From a virus (taxonomy: Duplodnaviria; Heunggongvirae; Uroviricota; Caudoviricetes), in IMG/VR virus record IMGVR_UViG_2563366860_000007, positions 1 to 40,364 of that record: a DNA stretch of 40,364 nt. One strand, given 5' to 3'. Below, piece after piece: positions 23,925-37,151 of this stretch (its first letter is position 1; every line of letters begins with the position of its first letter). The notes beneath the pieces are model-generated. The model saw nothing but the letters and a program-made list of their open reading frames with translations. It had not been told where the DNA came from and made no database searches. The position numbers were made by a program, and so were the translations under genes.

Positions 23925-23990
23925 TGCCGCCCGTATCCATATGCGGGCTTTTTTTTGCATGTAAAAAGGCCCCAACACATGTGCGTGGGG
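23925..23990. terminator. Pair of hairpins upstream of the holin (possible bidirectional terminators)
   Basis: GCCCGTAT-CC-ATATGCGGGC followed by T8 (plus-strand terminator) and AAAAA-GGCCCC-N13-GGGGCC (minus-strand terminator). Confidence 0.4.
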
Positions 23991-24192
23991 CCTGAGAGTA
24001 TACATGGTTTCAGTCAACTGCATGGTGCCGGGTGCCTCCCGGTGAATTCAGTACCAGCACCTGAATCCGCGATTATCCCATATACCTACTCGCTGATTGC
24101 CCATCCGCACAGGGGGATTCACCATGCCAGTTTCTTTTAACAAACTCCCCGCAAAACAGACAACTGTCAACCGTCTGAATTGTGAGACATTT

Positions 24193-24218
24193 AAAAAAAA
24201 GGCCCGCAAAAGCGAGCC
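24193..24218 (-). terminator. Rho-independent terminator just downstream of the tRNA cluster
   Basis: Plus strand AAAAAAAA then GGCCCGCAAAAGCGAGCC; on the minus strand a 7-bp stem (with one G-U pair) and UUUU loop followed by U8. Confidence 0.5.
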
Positions 24219-24232
24219 GGGAAAAATAAGTC

Positions 24233-24309
24233 TGGCGCGTTGTACTGGATTCGAACCAGTGACCGATTGCTTAGAAGGCAATTGCTCTGTCCGGTTGAGC
24301 TAACAACGC
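24233..24309 (-). tRNA. tRNA-Arg (anticodon UCU)
   Basis: Hand-folded cloverleaf: acceptor GCGTTGT/ACAACGC perfect, anticodon arm ATTGC-CTTCTAA-GCAAT, T-loop GGTTCGAATCC, encoded CCA; third gene of an Ile-Arg-Arg cluster like ileZ-argN-argO of Stx phages. Confidence 0.8.
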
Positions 24310-24322
24310 AGGGTACAGATAA

Positions 24323-24399
24323 TGGACCGCCTTCGGGGACTCGAACCCCGCGCAACCAGCTTCGAAGGCTGGTGCTCTATCCTGATGAGCTAATGGCGG
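24323..24399 (-). tRNA. tRNA-Arg (anticodon UCG by hand folding)
   Basis: Acceptor CCGCCAT/AAGGCGG with one A-A mismatch at 6:67, anticodon arm CCAGC-CTTCGAA-GCTGG, T-arm CGGGG-TTCGAGT-CCCCG, encoded CCA. Confidence 0.7.
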
Positions 24400-24406
24400 T
24401 ATGTGA

Positions 24407-24482
24407 TGGTGGCCCTTGCTGGATTTGAACCAGCGACCTGGCGATTATGAGTCGCTCGCTCTCACCACTGAGCTAAAGGGCC
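24407..24482 (-). tRNA. tRNA with CAU anticodon, Ile2 (ileX/ileZ-like) backbone
   Basis: Acceptor GGCCCTT/AAGGGCC, anticodon loop CTCATAA, T-loop GGTTCAAATCC; backbone resembles recalled E. coli ileX (lysidine-modified CAU reading AUA) rather than elongator or initiator Met tRNA. Confidence 0.75.
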
Positions 24483-30891: not shown

Positions 30892-31529
30892 GCGTTAGTT
30901 TCTCCACAACCAGAAGCAATCGACGCCACGACGCCCGGAGCTGCACACTCGCGGGCGTTACTCTTTTCCGGCGCACAAAAAACACGAAATAACAGTGTTA
31001 AATGCTCCTGCCACTTCGCCATTACTTGGTAGCTGTTCTCTTCGATTTGCTCACGCTCAGCTTGGTCAATAACTCCATCAGCAGTTGCCTTGCGTAAGTA
31101 CTGGGAATGCTTGCCAATCCATTCTATTGACTCCATCAGCCGCTGATTAATGTCACCATTGTCAATGTCATCAATGACCACCAGCGGCACAAACACCCCA
31201 TTACTACGACGGGCTATTGCATCCGTTACATGCCTGGTACCACTGGCATCCTGTAAAACCATGGCCCACTCAAGTGGAAAAATTTGATCCCCACCGCTAC
31301 GCAGTCTGTTATGCAATTGATCTTTTGCTGGGGTGATATCATCAGATTTATACAAACCAAGAATTTCTGCTGCTTCCTCATAGCCATGAGGTAAATCAGC
31401 AATCGTTCTTCGTATTGCTGCCACCAGCCATGCTGGTTGCTTATCAACTTTCCATTCAGGTTCTTTACCCACGTTTAAGCCCTCATATCTGTGGTTTCTG
31501 TAAATCGATTTATCCATTAGATTTTTCAT
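30888..31529 (-). CDS. CII-like / YdaT-like regulatory protein (start uncertain)
   Basis: Second gene of the rightward early operon after the Cro-like gene; ATG candidates at 31529 and 31517, the track start at 31586 is GTG; family by position and weak recall. Confidence 0.45.
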
Positions 31530-31710
31530 AAAGCTCAGGTTTAAATGGCAACCGTCCGCAAGTTCTATATGCAGCCTCTGCTGCACGTCCTTTTGGAATT
31601 AACTGGCCAGGACGGTTTCGCCACTGATAAACGGCTTCAGTTGTTATGCCGAAAAAAGCAGCAACTTTCTCAATGCTGCCGAAGTAGCTTTCGATATCGT
31701 CAGTCGTCAT
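31510..31710 (-). CDS. cro: Cro-like repressor (YdaS-like HTH)
   Basis: 66 aa; FFGITTEAVYQWRNRPGQLIPKGRAAE resembles YdaS/Cro-type HTH proteins; divergent from the CI gene. Confidence 0.7.
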   Translation of the reverse strand: MTTDDIESYFGSIEKVAAFFGITTEAVYQWRNRPGQLIPKGRAAEAAYRTCGRLPFKPELYEKSNG

Positions 31711-31807
31711 ATGCCCTCCAAACTAAGTTTTATTAGATGTTAATTATCAATCTATCTTAGGTCAATAAAAACTAAGATTACTTAGTAATTAAAGAAATGG
31801 TGCTCCT
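31711..31807. promoter_or_regulatory. Divergent immunity-region promoters with operator sites (OR-like)
   Basis: 97-bp intergenic region between cro-like and cI starts with repeated half-sites ACTAAG / CTTAGT: perfect inverted repeat ACTAAGATTACTTAGT at 31771..31786, ACTAAG at 31722, CTTAG at 31756. Confidence 0.6.
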
Positions 31808-32434
31808 ATGGAAACGGTTGGTCAGCGTATAAAAGCTCTGAGAAGAGTTACCAGAACGTCCCAGAAAGAATTGGGTAAATTTTGTGGAGTAAGTGACGTT
31901 GCTGTGGGGTACTGGGAGAAAGACATCAATGTCCCTGGTGGGGAAGCACTTTCAAAATTAGCGAAGTTCTTCAATACGTCAATAGATTACATTCTTTATG
32001 GTGCGGAGTTTGAAGGCAAACTCGTCACAAACATGCGCAGAGTTCCTGTAATCTCGTGGGTTCAGGCTGGGCAGTTTACTGAGTGCAGGACAGCAGAAGT
32101 GTTTAGTGAAGTAGACAAGTGGGTAGATACATCATTAAAGATTGGTGATAACTCATTTGCATTGGAGGTTAAAGGCGACTCCATGACTAACCCTAACGGC
32201 CTCCCAACAATACCAGAAGGCGCAACAGTGATTGTAGATCCTGATGCAGAACCCCGGCATGGAAAAATAGTCATCGCTAGACTTGATGGAACAAACGAAG
32301 CCACAGTAAAAAAATTAGTTATCGATGGCCCTCAAAAGTTTTTAGTGCCATTAAATCCCCGGTACCCCAACATCCCGATCAATGGTAATTGCCTCATCAT
32401 TGGTGTAGTCAAAGGAGTTCAATACGAACTCTAG
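31808..32434 (+). CDS. cI: CI-type prophage repressor (HTH plus S24 LexA-like peptidase domain)
   Basis: N-terminal HTH (QRIKALRRVTRTSQKELGKFCGVSDVAVGYWE) and C-terminal autocleavage domain with GDSM Ser and downstream KK. Confidence 0.9.
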   Translation: METVGQRIKALRRVTRTSQKELGKFCGVSDVAVGYWEKDINVPGGEALSKLAKFFNTSIDYILYGAEFEGKLVTNMRRVPVISWVQAGQFTECRTAEVFSEVDKWVDTSLKIGDNSFALEVKGDSMTNPNGLPTIPEGATVIVDPDAEPRHGKIVIARLDGTNEATVKKLVIDGPQKFLVPLNPRYPNIPINGNCLIIGVVKGVQYEL

Positions 32435-32453
32435 CCCCCCCTTTTCTCTAACC

Positions 32454-32490
32454 AAAACACCGAACTAAGAAAAGTTTGGTGTTTTCTCTT
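32454..32490 (+). terminator. Hairpin plus T-rich tract downstream of cI, flanked by operator-like half-sites
   Basis: AAAACACC-N16-GGTGTTTT followed by CTCTT; ACTAAG half-sites at 32463 and 32500 (same motif as in OR). Confidence 0.35.
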
Positions 32491-32790
32491 GCCATTAAAA
32501 CTAAGTTAAGTTAGATTTTATATCAAAGATAACGAACAGGCAGGACGCCCACGAAGTAGCCGCCTGGGGCATATGAAGTCCAGGATGATTCGTTAGTACC
32601 AAAAAAGCGCCCTACCGGACGCTTCGCTCTTTAAAAATCAGTAACCCTCACTTTGGGCCTGGATCTGGTGGCCTGGGACGAGGTGGAATATGAAAAGGCT
32701 CTATTGGTCGACTCATTATCCAATCCTATTATGTCTCATTTCTTCGGTTTCGGTGGTTTCGGCTTCGGAGGTACATGTCCGTGAACTGGA

Positions 32791-33285
32791 TTATGCTTGT
32801 TGGTCATCATTAATATCCGTTAGTTCATTCTCTAGAGGTAGATCTCCCGCACACCAAGCTATAAATTTTTCTTTGGTTGTTAAATCGTACTTAGTTGGAA
32901 CACCAGCAAAAATACAGGCCCGAATGAAAGCCGCTCGTTCAAGTGATTTCCATGGATTACTATCAGTATCTTGGATTTTTAAATACCTAGCTTGCAACTG
33001 ATCTTCAGGAAGGGTATCAGACTCAATCAGCAGTCTTTTGTAATGCCTCGCTTGCTCTTTAGACATTCCAGCCTCTTGGCCAAACTGATAGACCAACTGA
33101 AGAACCGAAAGTACGGCAACAAACAAACCGAAAATAAATAAATTACTGTACGGGGCGAAAACTGAAAAACCGAGAACGATTAACATCAACGTTATTAATT
33201 TATCAATGCGAGTTAACAACGTGTAATTCATCTTCTCCAATACATAAGAGTAGTGAACATAAAATTTATAATCGTCTCTGGTCAT
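32791..33285 (-). CDS. SieB-like membrane protein (candidate superinfection exclusion / abortive infection), AT-rich moron
   Basis: 164 aa; two adjacent TM helices (LITLMLIVLGFSVFAPY, LFIFGLFVAVLSVLQLVY) then a charged soluble C-terminus; antisense to the flanking early-left genes, as recalled for sieB in the Rac prophage; visibly AT-rich. Confidence 0.5.
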   Translation of the reverse strand: MTRDDYKFYVHYSYVLEKMNYTLLTRIDKLITLMLIVLGFSVFAPYSNLFIFGLFVAVLSVLQLVYQFGQEAGMSKEQARHYKRLLIESDTLPEDQLQARYLKIQDTDSNPWKSLERAAFIRACIFAGVPTKYDLTTKEKFIAWCAGDLPLENELTDINDDQQA

Positions 33286-33670
33286 ATTAGTCTCAGTTTT
33301 CCTTGGGTGGTTTTGGAGGAACTGGAGGCTTTTGTCTTAACGGCACATGCCTCTCCTCATACTTATCTACACATAGATCCATATAAATCCTTATCGTTGT
33401 TGGGGAGGGTTACATAATAACCAAATCCTTGTTGTTGGGGAATAACCAGGTCCACCTCGCCTGATGTGGCTAAAAGCAGGCACATAACAGCTAAGTATTT
33501 TCAACCAGAGAGAATCCTTAGCGTTGTGGTGAATGCGCAGGCTGATGCGCGAAAGACATTGCAGCTATTGCGGAAAAGAGCTGTTCGGCGGGGCAATTAA
33601 ACGCCCGTGAGAGTCTGAAATAACCGCAAGCCGGAGATCAGCACCGGTCACCACAACAGCCACTGCTTTG

Positions 33671-33718
33671 GCGGTACCAGTTTGTACACTTGCTTCCGGC
33701 TGGTACCGCTCTTTTTAC
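33671..33718 (+). terminator. Strong rho-independent terminator upstream of the early-left gene cluster
   Basis: GCGGTACCAG-N19-CTGGTACCGC (10-bp perfect stem) followed by TCTTTTTAC on the plus strand. Confidence 0.5.
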
Positions 33719-33853
33719 AAAACAGAGAAGAGCATCACCGGACGACGGGCTCATAACCCAATCCATCCGGGCGGCTGCCACCGCAGGTGTTCTTCTCTGT
33801 TTTGTGGAGAAACCAACCGACCTTGCAGGGTCGATATGATGAGGAGCAGCAAA

Positions 33854-34216
33854 ATGGCTAGCGAACGCAGTACTGATGTGCAGGCATTTATCGGGGAGCT
33901 GGACGGCGGCGTATTTGAAACCAAAATCGGCGCAGTTCTCAGTGAAGTCGCTTCCGGTGTGATGAACACGAAAACCAAAGGTAAGGTCTCGCTCAACCTG
34001 GAAATCGAACCGTTTGATGAGAACCGTGTGAAAATCAAACACAAACTCTCATATGTTCGCCCGACTAACCGCGGGAAAATTTCTGAAGAAGACACCACCG
34101 AAACGCCGATGTATGTCAATCGCGGTGGTCGCCTGACTATTCTGCAGGAAGACCAGGGACAATTACTGACTCTTGCCGGTGAACCTGACGGAAAACTCCG
34201 CGCAGCAGGTCATTAA
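33854..34216 (+). CDS. YfdP-like hypothetical protein (120 aa)
   Basis: ATG at 33854 preceded by GAGGAG; size and following gene order match recalled CPS-53 yfdP-yfdQ-yfdR-yfdS; the track ORF start at 33668 runs through the terminator and is rejected. Confidence 0.5.
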   Translation: MASERSTDVQAFIGELDGGVFETKIGAVLSEVASGVMNTKTKGKVSLNLEIEPFDENRVKIKHKLSYVRPTNRGKISEEDTTETPMYVNRGGRLTILQEDQGQLLTLAGEPDGKLRAAGH

Positions 34217-34281
34217 TATCGTTCTTAATTAACTGATTATTTATCTCATCACTGAATATCTTAATATAGTGAGGACTTATT

Positions 34282-35106
34282 ATGTCTCAGAACTTAGACG
34301 CAACCGCAATTAATCAAATCCATGCCCTTATTTCTGCTCAGGGTGTTAATGAAATTATCAGTAAGATTGGTGCCGATGCTGTGGCATTGCCTGAGAATTT
34401 CCGCATTCATGATCTGGAAAAATTTAATTTAAATCGCTTCCGTTTCCGTGGTGCGCTTTCCACTGCCAGCATCGATGACTTTACCCGTTATTCTAAAGAT
34501 CTTGCAGATGAAGGCACCCGCTGCTTTATCGATGCTGATAATATGCGTGCCGTCAGTGTGCTTAACCTGGGTACTATTGATGAACCAGGTCACGCAGATA
34601 ACACCGCCACTCTCAAACTGAAAAAGACAGCACCGTTCTCTGCCCTGTTGTCTGTTAACGGCGAGCGTAACTCCCAGAAATCACTGGCAGAATGGATTGA
34701 AGACTGGGCCGACTACCTTGTGGGCTTTGATGCTAATGGTGACGCCATTCAGGCAACAAAAGCGGCTGCGGCAATCCGTAAAATCACGATTGAAGCAAAC
34801 CAGACCGCTGATTTTGAAGATAATGACTTCAGCGGCAAACGCTCCCTGATGGAATCTGTCGAAGCGAAGACCAAAGACATTATGCCAGTGGCATTTGAAT
34901 TTAAATGCGTTCCGTTTGAAGGTCTGAAAGAACGTCCGTTTAAATTACGCCTCAGCATTATCACTGGCGATCGTCCTGTACTGGTTCTGCGCATTATTCA
35001 GCTGGAAGCGGTGCAGGAAGATATGGCTAACGAATTTCGTGATCTGCTTGTTGAGAAATTCAAAGACAGCAAAGTAGAAACCTTTATTGGTACTTTCACC
35101 GCCTGA
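34282..35106 (+). CDS. YfdQ-like protein (DUF2303 family)
   Basis: 274 aa, same length and position as recalled CPS-53 YfdQ. Confidence 0.6.
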
Positions 35107-36123: not shown

Positions 36124-36323
36124 GCGTGATAAAAACTCATACAGGAATTGTTATCACCCGAGACGGTCCGCAGGTAAAAAAACTGCACCAGACAAAGCGG
36201 ATGTGGGTCGTCGGAAAAAACGAGTTTTACCACAAAGAAACCGGACGCCGCCACTTTGCAGAAAATACTCGCCGCCGACTGCTGATCGATACCATCAAGC
36301 CTATCGAGGTGAAGCATGTTTAA
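36120..36323 (+). CDS. Hypothetical protein (67 aa)
   Basis: Start overlaps the upstream stop; basic small protein; no family recognised. Confidence 0.4.
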   Translation: MSVIKTHTGIVITRDGPQVKKLHQTKRMWVVGKNEFYHKETGRRHFAENTRRRLLIDTIKPIEVKHV

Positions 36324-36555
36324 ACAGAACGAAAAATCTATCGCTCAAATTGCTGAGTATATCCCGCGTGCGTGCCGGGATATGCAGTTGCAGGAAGCCA
36401 AAGCACGCCTGGAGAAAAAAATTGCGCTCTATATCGATGACGGCTGTGATGCCGCCGTTCTTAACGCGGCGTTCGCGCCAGCTCTTAACAGTCATACGCG
36501 AAAGTCTTTTTTTTCGTGCATCGCAGCGCAGATCCGTAAAGGAGGCAACCAGTGA
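36316..36555 (+). CDS. Hypothetical protein (79 aa)
   Basis: Translationally coupled with both neighbours (overlapping start and stop). Confidence 0.4.
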   Translation: MFKQNEKSIAQIAEYIPRACRDMQLQEAKARLEKKIALYIDDGCDAAVLNAAFAPALNSHTRKSFFSCIAAQIRKGGNQ

Positions 36556-37151
36556 GCAACATTAACTATCAGGTACTGCGTGAAAAGGCAGAGAAAGCAA
36601 CTAAAGGAAGCTACATCGTAGGGCATACATCTGTTAACCAACACGGCAATTTAACAGGAGTTTTTGTTTGTCAAAAATGGAAAGGAGAACCCGGTGGCGT
36701 AATTGCAGAATGTCACGTTAACTGCCTGGTTGAAACAGATGCTCAGGCTTATGCAAACGCTGAATTCATAGCAGAGGCTAACCCGGCTACCGTGCTGGCA
36801 CTGCTGGATGAACAGGAAAGAAACCAGCAATACATCAAACGCCGCGACCAGGAGAACGAGGATATTGCGCTAACGGTAGGGAAGCTGCGCGTTGAGCTTG
36901 AGGAGACAAAATCAAAACTCAACGAGCAGCGCGAGTATTACGAGGGAGTTATCTCTGATGGGTGCAAGCGTATTGCTGAACTGGAAGCGCGGGAAGTTCA
37001 ATTACCGACTCGCTACGACCTTCGATATGGACACCCGATAAATGCAGATGAGCGACATGTCATGATACCTAAAGAAAATGGCAGTTGGCTTTACCTGATT
37101 GACCTAGAACACGCATTACGCGTCGCTGGCATTCGCATCAAAGGAGAGTGA
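36552..37151 (+). CDS. Ead/Ea22-like protein
   Basis: 199 aa; N-terminus MSNINYQVLREKAEKATKGSY... and central coiled coil resemble recalled Ea22-family proteins of lambdoid early-left regions. Confidence 0.55.
   Translation: MSNINYQVLREKAEKATKGSYIVGHTSVNQHGNLTGVFVCQKWKGEPGGVIAECHVNCLVETDAQAYANAEFIAEANPATVLALLDEQERNQQYIKRRDQENEDIALTVGKLRVELEETKSKLNEQREYYEGVISDGCKRIAELEAREVQLPTRYDLRYGHPINADERHVMIPKENGSWLYLIDLEHALRVAGIRIKGE

Follow-up and report, generated by a model that had tools for sequence, protein, structure and literature searches.

A conserved 66-nt leader RNA and a probable rrn-type boxA at the early-left promoter of a lambdoid prophage without N

The prophage and its early-left region

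The DNA of IMG/VR record IMGVR_UViG_2563366860_000007 (Caudoviricetes; 40,364 nucleotides (nt), analysed at full length and termed the window) is a complete lambdoid prophage of Escherichia coli. It is of the SfV/e14 type and is inserted beside prfC. Treated here is the region between its cI-type repressor gene and yfdP, which carries a conserved 66-nt RNA at the head of the transcript from the early-left promoter pL, followed by a boxA motif. An earlier note on this DNA had flagged the interval 32600-33001. It is the 5′ leader of a repressor-controlled pL operon in an N-less SfV/e14-type lambdoid prophage. The 66-nt RNA lies immediately 5′ of the flagged interval and is absent from that note.

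Gene assignments follow the Prokaryotic Genome Annotation Pipeline (PGAP) annotation of an identical prophage copy in E. coli MS8345. The list comprises an integrase, the early-left genes yfdP/Q/R, a LexA-family repressor, Cro, a YmfL/cII-like protein, replication genes, a Q-family antiterminator, lysis genes and HK97-type morphogenesis genes. No N gene is annotated in the whole prophage, and Q is the sole antiterminator listed. A scan for arginine-rich, N-like open reading frames (ORFs) yielded out-of-frame or antisense ORFs only. Both results bear out the statement of the earlier note that no arginine-rich N-like protein was found. The sole arginine-rich ORF on the pL strand in the early-left region (36203..36565, +; VGRRKKRVLPQRNRT...) is judged to be a shadow, an alternative frame spanning two small PGAP-annotated genes. 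Just downstream of the Q gene, an STnc100 small RNA match (133 bits) and three tRNA genes occupy 23957..24482 (-), a placement resembling the late-leader regions of Stx-type phages.

The region from cI to yfdP matches the phages SfV, SfII, SfIV and Kati in blocks only. The block 32400..32639 matches Kati, and within it 32531..32594 also matches SfV with 98% identity. A second block (33388/33452..33900) matches both Kati and SfV. Judged from these matches, the middle part (32640..33388) is a replaceable insert. Parts of a query covering 32400..33900, including the block 33388..33853, match more than 3000 E. coli records.

The features at the start of the pL operon are:
31808..32434 (+): cI-type repressor gene (helix-turn-helix and peptidase S24, LexA family); an ORF, named 'LexA family protein' by PGAP, with Pfam matches to Peptidase_S24 (1.6e-27) and HTH_3
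32454..32490 (+): probable terminator of the repressor transcript, read from the sequence as a hairpin AAAACACCGAACU/AGUUUGGUGUUUU with a U-rich tail
32489..32517 (+): pL promoter, TTGCCA-17-TAGATT, from a sigma-70-like consensus scan
32500..32514 (+): operator-like site ACTAAGTTAAGTTAG within pL, from the pattern ACTAAG-N3-5-TTAG

The repressor-transcript terminator adjoins the -35 element of pL. At the corresponding position behind cI, a 'putative rho-independent terminator' is annotated in SfV. The hairpin at 32454..32490 is missing from the output of the consensus scan. pL is the sole plus-strand sigma-70-like site within 31400..34400, and its position places the transcript start near 32524. 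The operator-like pattern occurs three times in the whole window, twice at the right operator between cro and cI (31722 and 31771/2) and once in pL, with a chance expectation of 0.03. pL is accordingly predicted to be repressor-controlled.

The leader RNA

The elements of the RNA are:
32530..32595 (+): conserved 66-nt leader RNA, from a covariance model, covariation on two alignments and RNAalifold
32530-36/32589-95 (+): helix P1
32539-41/32547-49 (+): helix P2
32563-67/32580-84 (+): helix P3
32559-61/32568-70 (+): pseudoknot, with an invariant CACGAAGUAGC and the junction AUGA

The RNA begins about 6 nt past the predicted transcript start and spans about +6 to +71. It folds into a three-way junction with a probable pseudoknot, and its covariation is strong. 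The covariance-model match (32528..32597) scores 89.6 bits with an E value of 8.5e-29 and is the sole copy in the window. Covariation was evaluated on a gapless alignment of 93 sequences and on an alignment fitted by the covariance model, with 87 distinct rows from species-representative genomes. In the gapless alignment, 91.3% of the cells were paired, compared to 73.4% in shuffles and 25-47% in slid controls. The covariation score of 0.468, against 0.141 in shuffles, was reached by none of 500 shuffles. Double changes affect six of the seven pairs of P1 and all five of P3; P1, P3 and one free pseudoknot pair are supported. The fitted alignment reproduces the covariation result, and RNAalifold independently recovers P1, P2 and P3. 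The free pseudoknot pair is CG in 59-64 sequences, UG in 21-22, UA in 1-5 and GC in 1-2 across the two alignments. P2 variants with a longer loop (GGC-AAGGAAA-GCC) retain the hairpin. A hammerhead-like reading of the junction (AUGA/CGAA) is ruled out by the topology in the alignment, and the Rfam ribozyme models were silent.

At gathering thresholds, an Rfam 15 scan of the whole window gave only STnc100 and the three tRNAs, all outside the region. A scan of 32400..33900 at E<=10 gave a spurious snoRNA match only. In the literature, no description was found of the 66-nt RNA nor of a boxA in these prophage leaders. The RNA represents an undescribed family, new and possibly a new class of cis-acting leader element.

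The 64 bases common to the window and SfV prompted a blastn search. A block of about 60 nt was present in 56 phage records from Escherichia, Shigella, Salmonella, Klebsiella, Yersinia, Citrobacter, Pantoea, Pectobacterium, Providencia and Aeromonas. It is unannotated in nearly all of them; a few records give a hypothetical protein or, in Providencia phages, a terminal repeat. Lambda, P22, 21, HK97 and HK022 are not among the block-carrying phages found by blastn. In annotated phages, a promoter precedes the block, which is on the strand of the repressor gene and 110-170 nt past its stop codon. Pattern scans, which held GCCCACGAAGTAGC and the GC of GCRWAHGAA fixed, revealed at least 120 loci in IMG/VR and 111 in species-representative genomes, the latter nearly all from Enterobacterales. 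The RNA occurs in 1845 of 5426 complete E. coli genomes (34%), and the copies are unannotated in all five records among the matches listed. In K-12, the e14 copy (NC_000913.3, 1202109..1202179 (-), equal to L134 7110..7180 (-); 70.5 bits) sits between ymfK and ymfJ, behind an SfV-type pL. Its pseudoknot partner GGC is altered to UAC, and a tL-like terminator follows about 870 nt downstream. The Rac prophage of K-12 harbors a decayed RNA copy only. The lambdoid phage mEp237, which encodes O, P, Ren, CII, Q, Kil and RecET, has the RNA and no annotated N.

A same-strand ORF ends at most 300 nt upstream of the RNA in 154 of 178 loci, with a median gap of 147 nt. Pfam identified HTH_3 (14), Peptidase_S24 (9), Phage_CI_repr (6) and RexB (1) on 32 sampled upstream ORFs, the arrangement known from the lambda immunity region. 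A promoter (score of at least 9/12, within 120 nt upstream of the RNA) is present in 83 of 198 loci and in 3 of 198 controls. From the end of the -10 element to P1, the median distance is 14 nt in these 83 loci and the distance is 13 nt in the window. The first sense ORFs downstream of the RNA form 66 clusters unrelated to each other; the RNA thus has no partner protein encoded beside it.

Providencia phage PR1 (L011, in the terminal repeat) and the phage of locus L063 are lytic and T5-like. In both, the pre-early genes A2 and A1 are preceded by promoter, RNA and boxA; thus, the RNA also occurs outside temperate phages. Full-length copies of 77 and 84 bits were found in assemblies labelled Chryseobacterium sp. 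18061 (L167) and Vagococcus sp. WN89Y (L220). These copies under non-Enterobacterales labels could be contamination or recent transfer. L167 also codes for a homologue of the 164-amino-acid (aa) protein described below. A second conserved leader module, GCGCAGCAGGU..AACGUUCCGCC-loop-GGCG-WUAAGGG, stands before or after the 66-nt RNA in L005 (mEp237), L010 (SPN3UB), L012, L114, L044, L055, L133 (Rac) and many IMG/VR loci. It belongs mainly to Gifsy-like phages of the RecE/Kil type, may be followed by the hairpin and boxA cassette, and is absent from the window.

The boxA and its hairpin

In the window, the RNA is followed by a run of six A, a hairpin and the boxA:
32605..32624 (both strands): hairpin AAGCGCC-CUACC-GG(A)CGCUU; minus-strand terminator prediction 32623..32598, -11.4 kcal/mol
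32625..32638 (+): boxA CGCTCTTTAAAAAT, 12/13 identical to the rrnB boxA GCTCTTTAACAAT read from K-12

The earlier note had reported the boxA match CGCTCTTTA at 32625..32633 (+), about 100 nt past the predicted transcript start. Position and strand are correct and comparative backing was obtained; within the window alone, the match is not beyond chance. The 9-mer core GCTCTTTAA occurs once in 40 kb with 0.31 expected, and at least one copy appeared in 27 of 100 shuffles. Support for the boxA comes from the comparison with other loci. The rrn-type match to GCUCUUUAACAAU is 12/13 in the window (GCTCTTTAAAAAT) and ranges from 13/13 to 15/15 of the K-12 rrnB leader in relatives. There, the same cassette reads GCTCTTTAACAAT(TT), identical to the K-12 rrnB boxA over 13-15 bases. 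Within 400 nt of the RNA, 23 of 121 loci have the motif GCTCTT[TA]A downstream on the sense strand, none has it upstream and two have it antisense. A cassette scan yielded 95 distinct occurrences. An exact RNA core lies 60-130 nt upstream in 69 of them; about ten others have diverged RNA copies, and most of the rest follow the second leader module.

The cassette appears to be two-faced, a terminator for the antisense gene cluster and a hairpin plus boxA for the sense pL transcript. This reading is based on the antisense ORFs that end beyond it and on the quality of the minus-strand hairpin as a terminator. Of 68 distinct downstream contexts, 62 have an antisense ORF of at least 90 aa that ends at most 300 nt beyond the boxA. 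Read in the minus direction, the hairpin forms with a run of six T (32601..32606) the intrinsic terminator that closes the antisense cluster. In the plus direction, the hairpin occupies the position of boxB in the rrn leader, just 5′ of the boxA, and ends 1 nt before it. In the two T5-like Providencia phages, the RNA is followed after 10 nt by an identical CGCTCTTTAAAAAT without a hairpin, which argues for selection of the boxA on the sense strand. The boxA of the window is probably real. It is rated as another member of an already known element type.

The search for boxB-like hairpins that the earlier note had proposed found none 3′ of the boxA; the fold there pairs antisense micro-ORF sequence only. 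The sequence 3′ of the boxA is wholly different between the window and Kati-type relatives. After pR and cro, no second nut site is present: GCTCTTTAA is single in the window, and the gap between cro and ymfL measures 37 nt. Together with the PGAP list and the arginine-rich scan, this leaves neither a conventional N gene nor nut sites elsewhere, the finding by which the earlier note would have been contradicted. Its proposal that early-left antitermination may work differently here is upheld. The prophage lacks N and a conventional nut site (boxA, then boxB), and early-left transcription must therefore pass terminators in another way.

Terminators in the path of early-left transcription

Downstream of the insert, the following features are located:
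33388..33853 (+): conserved non-coding block common to SfV, Kati and e14, with 82-83% identity to Kati and SfV
33670..33718 (+): intrinsic terminator tL, GGCGGUACCAG...CUGGUACCGC followed by UCUUUUU, -19 to -21 kcal/mol
33717..33805 (+): long hairpin of about 25 base pairs (bp), in the minimum-free-energy and centroid structures, starting inside the tL U-tract
33854..34216 (+): yfdP (PGAP; PHROG 204)

The pL leader crosses the inserted cluster (a micro-ORF, the 164-aa gene and two micro-ORFs) in antisense and then meets tL. From the boxA to yfdP, 1.2 kb of the pL transcript are devoid of a conserved sense ORF. yfdP is the first conserved sense gene of the early-left operon, with yfdQ, yfdR and others next. 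The tL stem is GC-rich with 10-13 bp, strong and in the path of pL transcription. Its homologue bears a putative-terminator annotation in SfV, and Kati and e14 retain it with a loop that has diverged. The region 33560..33860 is far more stably folded than its shuffles, with a z-score of -4.16. The GCUCUU of the terminator may alternatively pair with AAGAGC of the long hairpin, a possible switch. The sigma-70-like scan of 31400..34400 predicted no plus-strand promoter in the conserved block, nor after tL. The C-over-G (rut-like) composition of the sense leader is unremarkable.

Terminators were counted with a strict finder; a permissive version was too noisy and was discarded. A strong sense-strand terminator lies at most 2.5 kb after the RNA in 40 of 84 loci, compared to 21 of 84 in the pR direction.

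Comparison with known systems

One of the closest known systems is the put RNA of phage HK022, which mediates antitermination in cis and depends on the zinc-binding domain of the RNA polymerase beta′ subunit. HK022 and the window both start the pL transcript of an N-less lambdoid phage with a structured RNA of about 70 nt just downstream of the early promoter (P1 13 nt past the -10 element in the window), and both have terminators downstream. HK022 putL occupies +3..+72 of the transcript (PMC9378689), compared to about +6..+71 here. The put RNA modifies the RNA polymerase that transcribes it (PMC9378689). The two systems differ in that HK022 has putL and putR, whereas the prophage has no pR-side copy and a boxA often stands alongside the new RNA. 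blastn finds no similarity between the RNAs. An apparent resemblance to putL (ACGAAC..GGC, CAGGAUGA, similar spacing) was rejected: the bases in question fall within variable helices, and neither the covariance model nor the alignments supported it.

Lambda nutL and N share the map position (cI, pL, leader, early-left genes, xis/int) and a boxA (CGCUCUUA-like) on the leader. In contrast, the prophage has no N, no boxB 3′ of the boxA and no nutR. The boxA here belongs to the rrn type, with the hairpin in front of it and not behind.

The rrn leader signal consists of boxB, boxA and boxC and engages NusB, NusE, NusA, NusG, SuhB and S4. As in the prophage, a hairpin is followed within 1-2 nt by GCUCUUUAA(C/A)AAU; the rrnB hairpin ends 2 nt before the boxA. 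The expected task, protection of a long untranslated RNA from Rho, would also be the same. The boxC (UGUGUGGG) of rrnB is absent from 32639..32700. Moreover, the hairpin sequence of the prophage is unrelated and doubles as an opposite-strand terminator, and the transcript is a phage leader, not rRNA. The NusB-NusE pair recognises 8 nt of the boxA and can also bind double-stranded RNA at a neighboring site (PMC3177189).

A further parallel is provided by the untranslated arrays of clustered regularly interspaced short palindromic repeats (CRISPR), which a boxA protects from Rho (PMC7665894). In both cases, the boxA lies ahead of a long untranslated transcript that would otherwise be terminated by Rho. 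The untranslated stretch of the prophage differs in being, on this analysis, the antisense of an inserted gene cluster in a phage operon.

Proposed mechanism and alternatives

In the favored reading, which is put forward tentatively and falls a little short of being probable, the 66-nt RNA and the boxA would replace N and nut at the pL leader and permit N-independent read-through of tL and Rho. The RNA would act in cis on the transcribing RNA polymerase, like HK022 put, and render it terminator-resistant. The boxA would load NusB/NusE and other Nus factors, and these would guard the long, untranslated leader against Rho, in the manner of rrn operons and CRISPR arrays. Jointly, the two elements would substitute for N/nut, and tL (33670..33718) would be passed. 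The position and cis arrangement of the RNA, the lack of N and of a partner gene, and the terminators downstream all fit a put-like, polymerase-modifying RNA. A wider claim is possible and rather more doubtful. The RNA would constitute a new structural class of cis-acting, RNA polymerase-modifying antiterminator unrelated to put. Together with the mobile hairpin and boxA cassette, it would replace N/nut at pL in a large share of the temperate phages of Enterobacterales and would have been co-opted in the pre-early region of T5-like phages.

Several observations weigh against read-through by RNA and boxA. Within the RNA, the pseudoknot has one free covarying pair; the 3′ arm of P2 and two of the three pseudoknot pairs are invariant by construction, because the pattern scans fixed part of the core. 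The single-sequence fold is not stabler than shuffles (z -0.44). No second copy was found by the covariance model on the pR side or elsewhere in the window, and about half of the loci are without a predicted strong sense-strand terminator within 2.5 kb. The relation to put is also limited. The covariance model of the new family misses the HK022 immunity region. Global alignment scores with the put RNAs were reached by 10% and 4% of shuffles, versus 0% for putL-putR. HK022 put forms two adjacent stem-loops in a V, whereas P1 of the new RNA encloses P2, P3 and the probable pseudoknot. As to the boxA, the copy in the window differs from that of rrnB at one base and by itself does not exceed chance, and a boxA accompanies only about 20% of the RNA elements. 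The adjacent hairpin is more simply explained as the terminator of the antisense genes, and the 13-mer could therefore be carried along with the cassette.

This last point leads to the strongest rival, considered somewhat unlikely, in which the boxA-like 13-mer is functionless on the plus strand. It would be carried with the antisense terminator cassette or act in the 3′ untranslated region (UTR) of the antisense transcript. The antisense ORFs ending just beyond the cassette in 62 of 68 contexts and the lack of significance in the window alone agree with such hitch-hiking. However, the rrnB identity over 13-15 bases is far beyond chance, with about 0.0007 exact 13-mers expected in the 48 kb scanned. 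The order of hairpin and boxA is that of the rrn leader, the cassettes are almost exclusive to pL leaders, and the boxA follows the RNA without a hairpin in the T5-like phages and in L070.

The RNA could also be a 5′-UTR element for mRNA stability or translation that does not act on the polymerase, with tL leaky or yfdP served by its own promoter. This is judged improbable. The extreme 5′ position of the RNA in most loci (median of 14 nt from the -10 element to P1) would suit such an element, as would the sense genes that start 24-37 nt after P1 in e14, SfV, YeP1 and AH07. The invariant single-stranded bases and the probable pseudoknot, however, exceed the needs of a protective stem. In some loci another module precedes the RNA, which then lies about 65 nt into the transcript, and in the window the next 1.2 kb hold no sense gene. 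The fold never takes in the Shine-Dalgarno sequence or the start codon of the following gene, and the sigma-70-like scan shows no plus-strand promoter past tL.

An aptamer or protein-binding site, either a riboswitch-like sensor or the target of a factor encoded elsewhere, might gate early-left expression. A three-way junction, a pseudoknot and an invariant core are typical aptamer features, and conservation from an Aeromonas phage to Enterobacterales points to a conserved ligand or partner. Such a role is nevertheless decidedly improbable: no conserved expression platform follows, the downstream sequence being mosaic, no neighboring protein is conserved and no Rfam riboswitch class matches.

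Very little credence is given to an action in trans, e.g. as a decoy against a host defence or nuclease, with the RNA simply being the earliest product of the early promoter. Induction or infection yields this RNA before any other, and it is present in the pre-early (first-step-transfer) region of T5-like phages as well as in early-left regions. Early-left regions tend to hold anti-defence genes. The RNA, however, always stands in cis at the head of a long operon, and no conserved terminator right after it would release a small RNA.

The antisense gene cluster and the 103-aa frame

The insert between the boxA and the conserved block contains:
32648..32716 (-): micro-ORF 3, 22 aa (MSRPIEPFHIPPRPRPPDPGPK)
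32680..32686 (+): GAGGTGG, 3 nt before the ATG of the 103-aa ORF
32690..33001 (+): 103-aa ATG ORF of the earlier note, judged a non-coding antisense shadow
32736..32810 (-): micro-ORF 2, 24 aa (MMTNKHNPVHGHVPPKPKPPKPKK), with homologous 24-aa ORFs at the same position in L104 and L089
32791..33285 (-): antisense 'moron' gene for a 164-aa protein with two predicted transmembrane helices; PHROG 6315 (function unknown), E 9e-64; hypothetical protein of PGAP; eight homologues with 36-67% identity
33293..33382 (-): micro-ORF 1, 29 aa (...HVPLRQKPPVPPKPPKEN), with counterparts in L037, L104 and L089

Micro-ORF 1 ends 8 nt before the start codon of the 164-aa gene. The three micro-ORFs, which have counterparts in the homologous loci, have the motif H[VI]PP[KR]P[KR]PP.P.PK in common. 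Small ORFs with this motif were found 11 times antisense to pL across loci and never in sense. They could encode stalling leader peptides dependent on elongation factor P, or peptides similar to proline-rich antimicrobial peptides. A direct repeat, CCCCAACAAC(AAGGAT / GATAAGGAT), lies on the minus strand at about 33400..33470, upstream of micro-ORF 1 and within a block conserved among loci that carry the 164-aa gene. Possibly it serves the antisense cluster as a promoter or regulatory site; no minus-strand promoter was listed by the consensus scan at about 33400..33470.

The plus-strand ORF had been proposed as a possible overlapping gene with a very strong Shine-Dalgarno sequence. Its coordinates and ATG are correct, and it is mostly antisense to the minus-strand gene (overlap of 211/312 nt with the 164-aa ORF), as the earlier note had it. 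The GAGGTGG is present as described, yet it is the complement of the Pro-Pro-Arg codons (CCACCTC) of micro-ORF 3. The TTCGG-rich repeat, said to precede the ORF, lies inside it (32743..32768) and is the complement of Pro/Lys codons of micro-ORF 2. The low-complexity composition is the antisense image of these Pro/Lys-rich minus-strand micro-ORFs. For the 103-aa product, no PHROG match was found, and all Pfam and NCBIfam matches were sub-threshold. PGAP calls the minus-strand gene only. Homologues of the 164-aa protein with 36-67% amino-acid identity occur in five other loci. In the four loci examined (L037, L104, L089, L110), the plus frame is interrupted or absent while the minus-strand gene is intact. 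The 103-aa ORF is best read as a coding shadow, and a real gene with its ATG 3 nt behind GAGGTGG has next to no probability, given the missing family matches and PGAP call, the broken frames and a 'Shine-Dalgarno' and repeat that are complements of conserved proline codons. A false gene call is thereby removed, and the case illustrates that small ORFs rich in proline can imitate both an ORF and a Shine-Dalgarno sequence on the other strand.

The label 'SieB-like' for the minus-strand gene is positional only and lacks sequence support. The 164-aa protein shares position, orientation, size (162-164 aa) and two hydrophobic helices with SieB of lambda, P22 and Rac; the sieB of Rac is antisense between racR and kilR. 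It differs in showing no detectable homology and in the flanking proline-rich micro-ORFs, which to our knowledge do not occur with sieB. Identification as SieB was rejected with no match in Pfam (E<=0.1), NCBIfam or PADLOC, an E value of 0.026 in BLASTP against Rac SieB and an hhalign probability of 0.3%. A profile search of PDB with the 164-aa protein was empty.

Implications for N-less phages

Many lambdoid phages are without N, and their passage of early terminators is still guesswork. For one N-less phage, a 2025 survey suggested 'perhaps put-like RNA' (PMC12315714). A precisely bounded, covariation-backed RNA at the head of the pL transcript, often with an rrn-type boxA, provides a concrete candidate for such phages. 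If active, the 66-nt RNA would be only the second class of RNA-only phage antiterminator, and it would offer a compact new part for synthetic read-through control.

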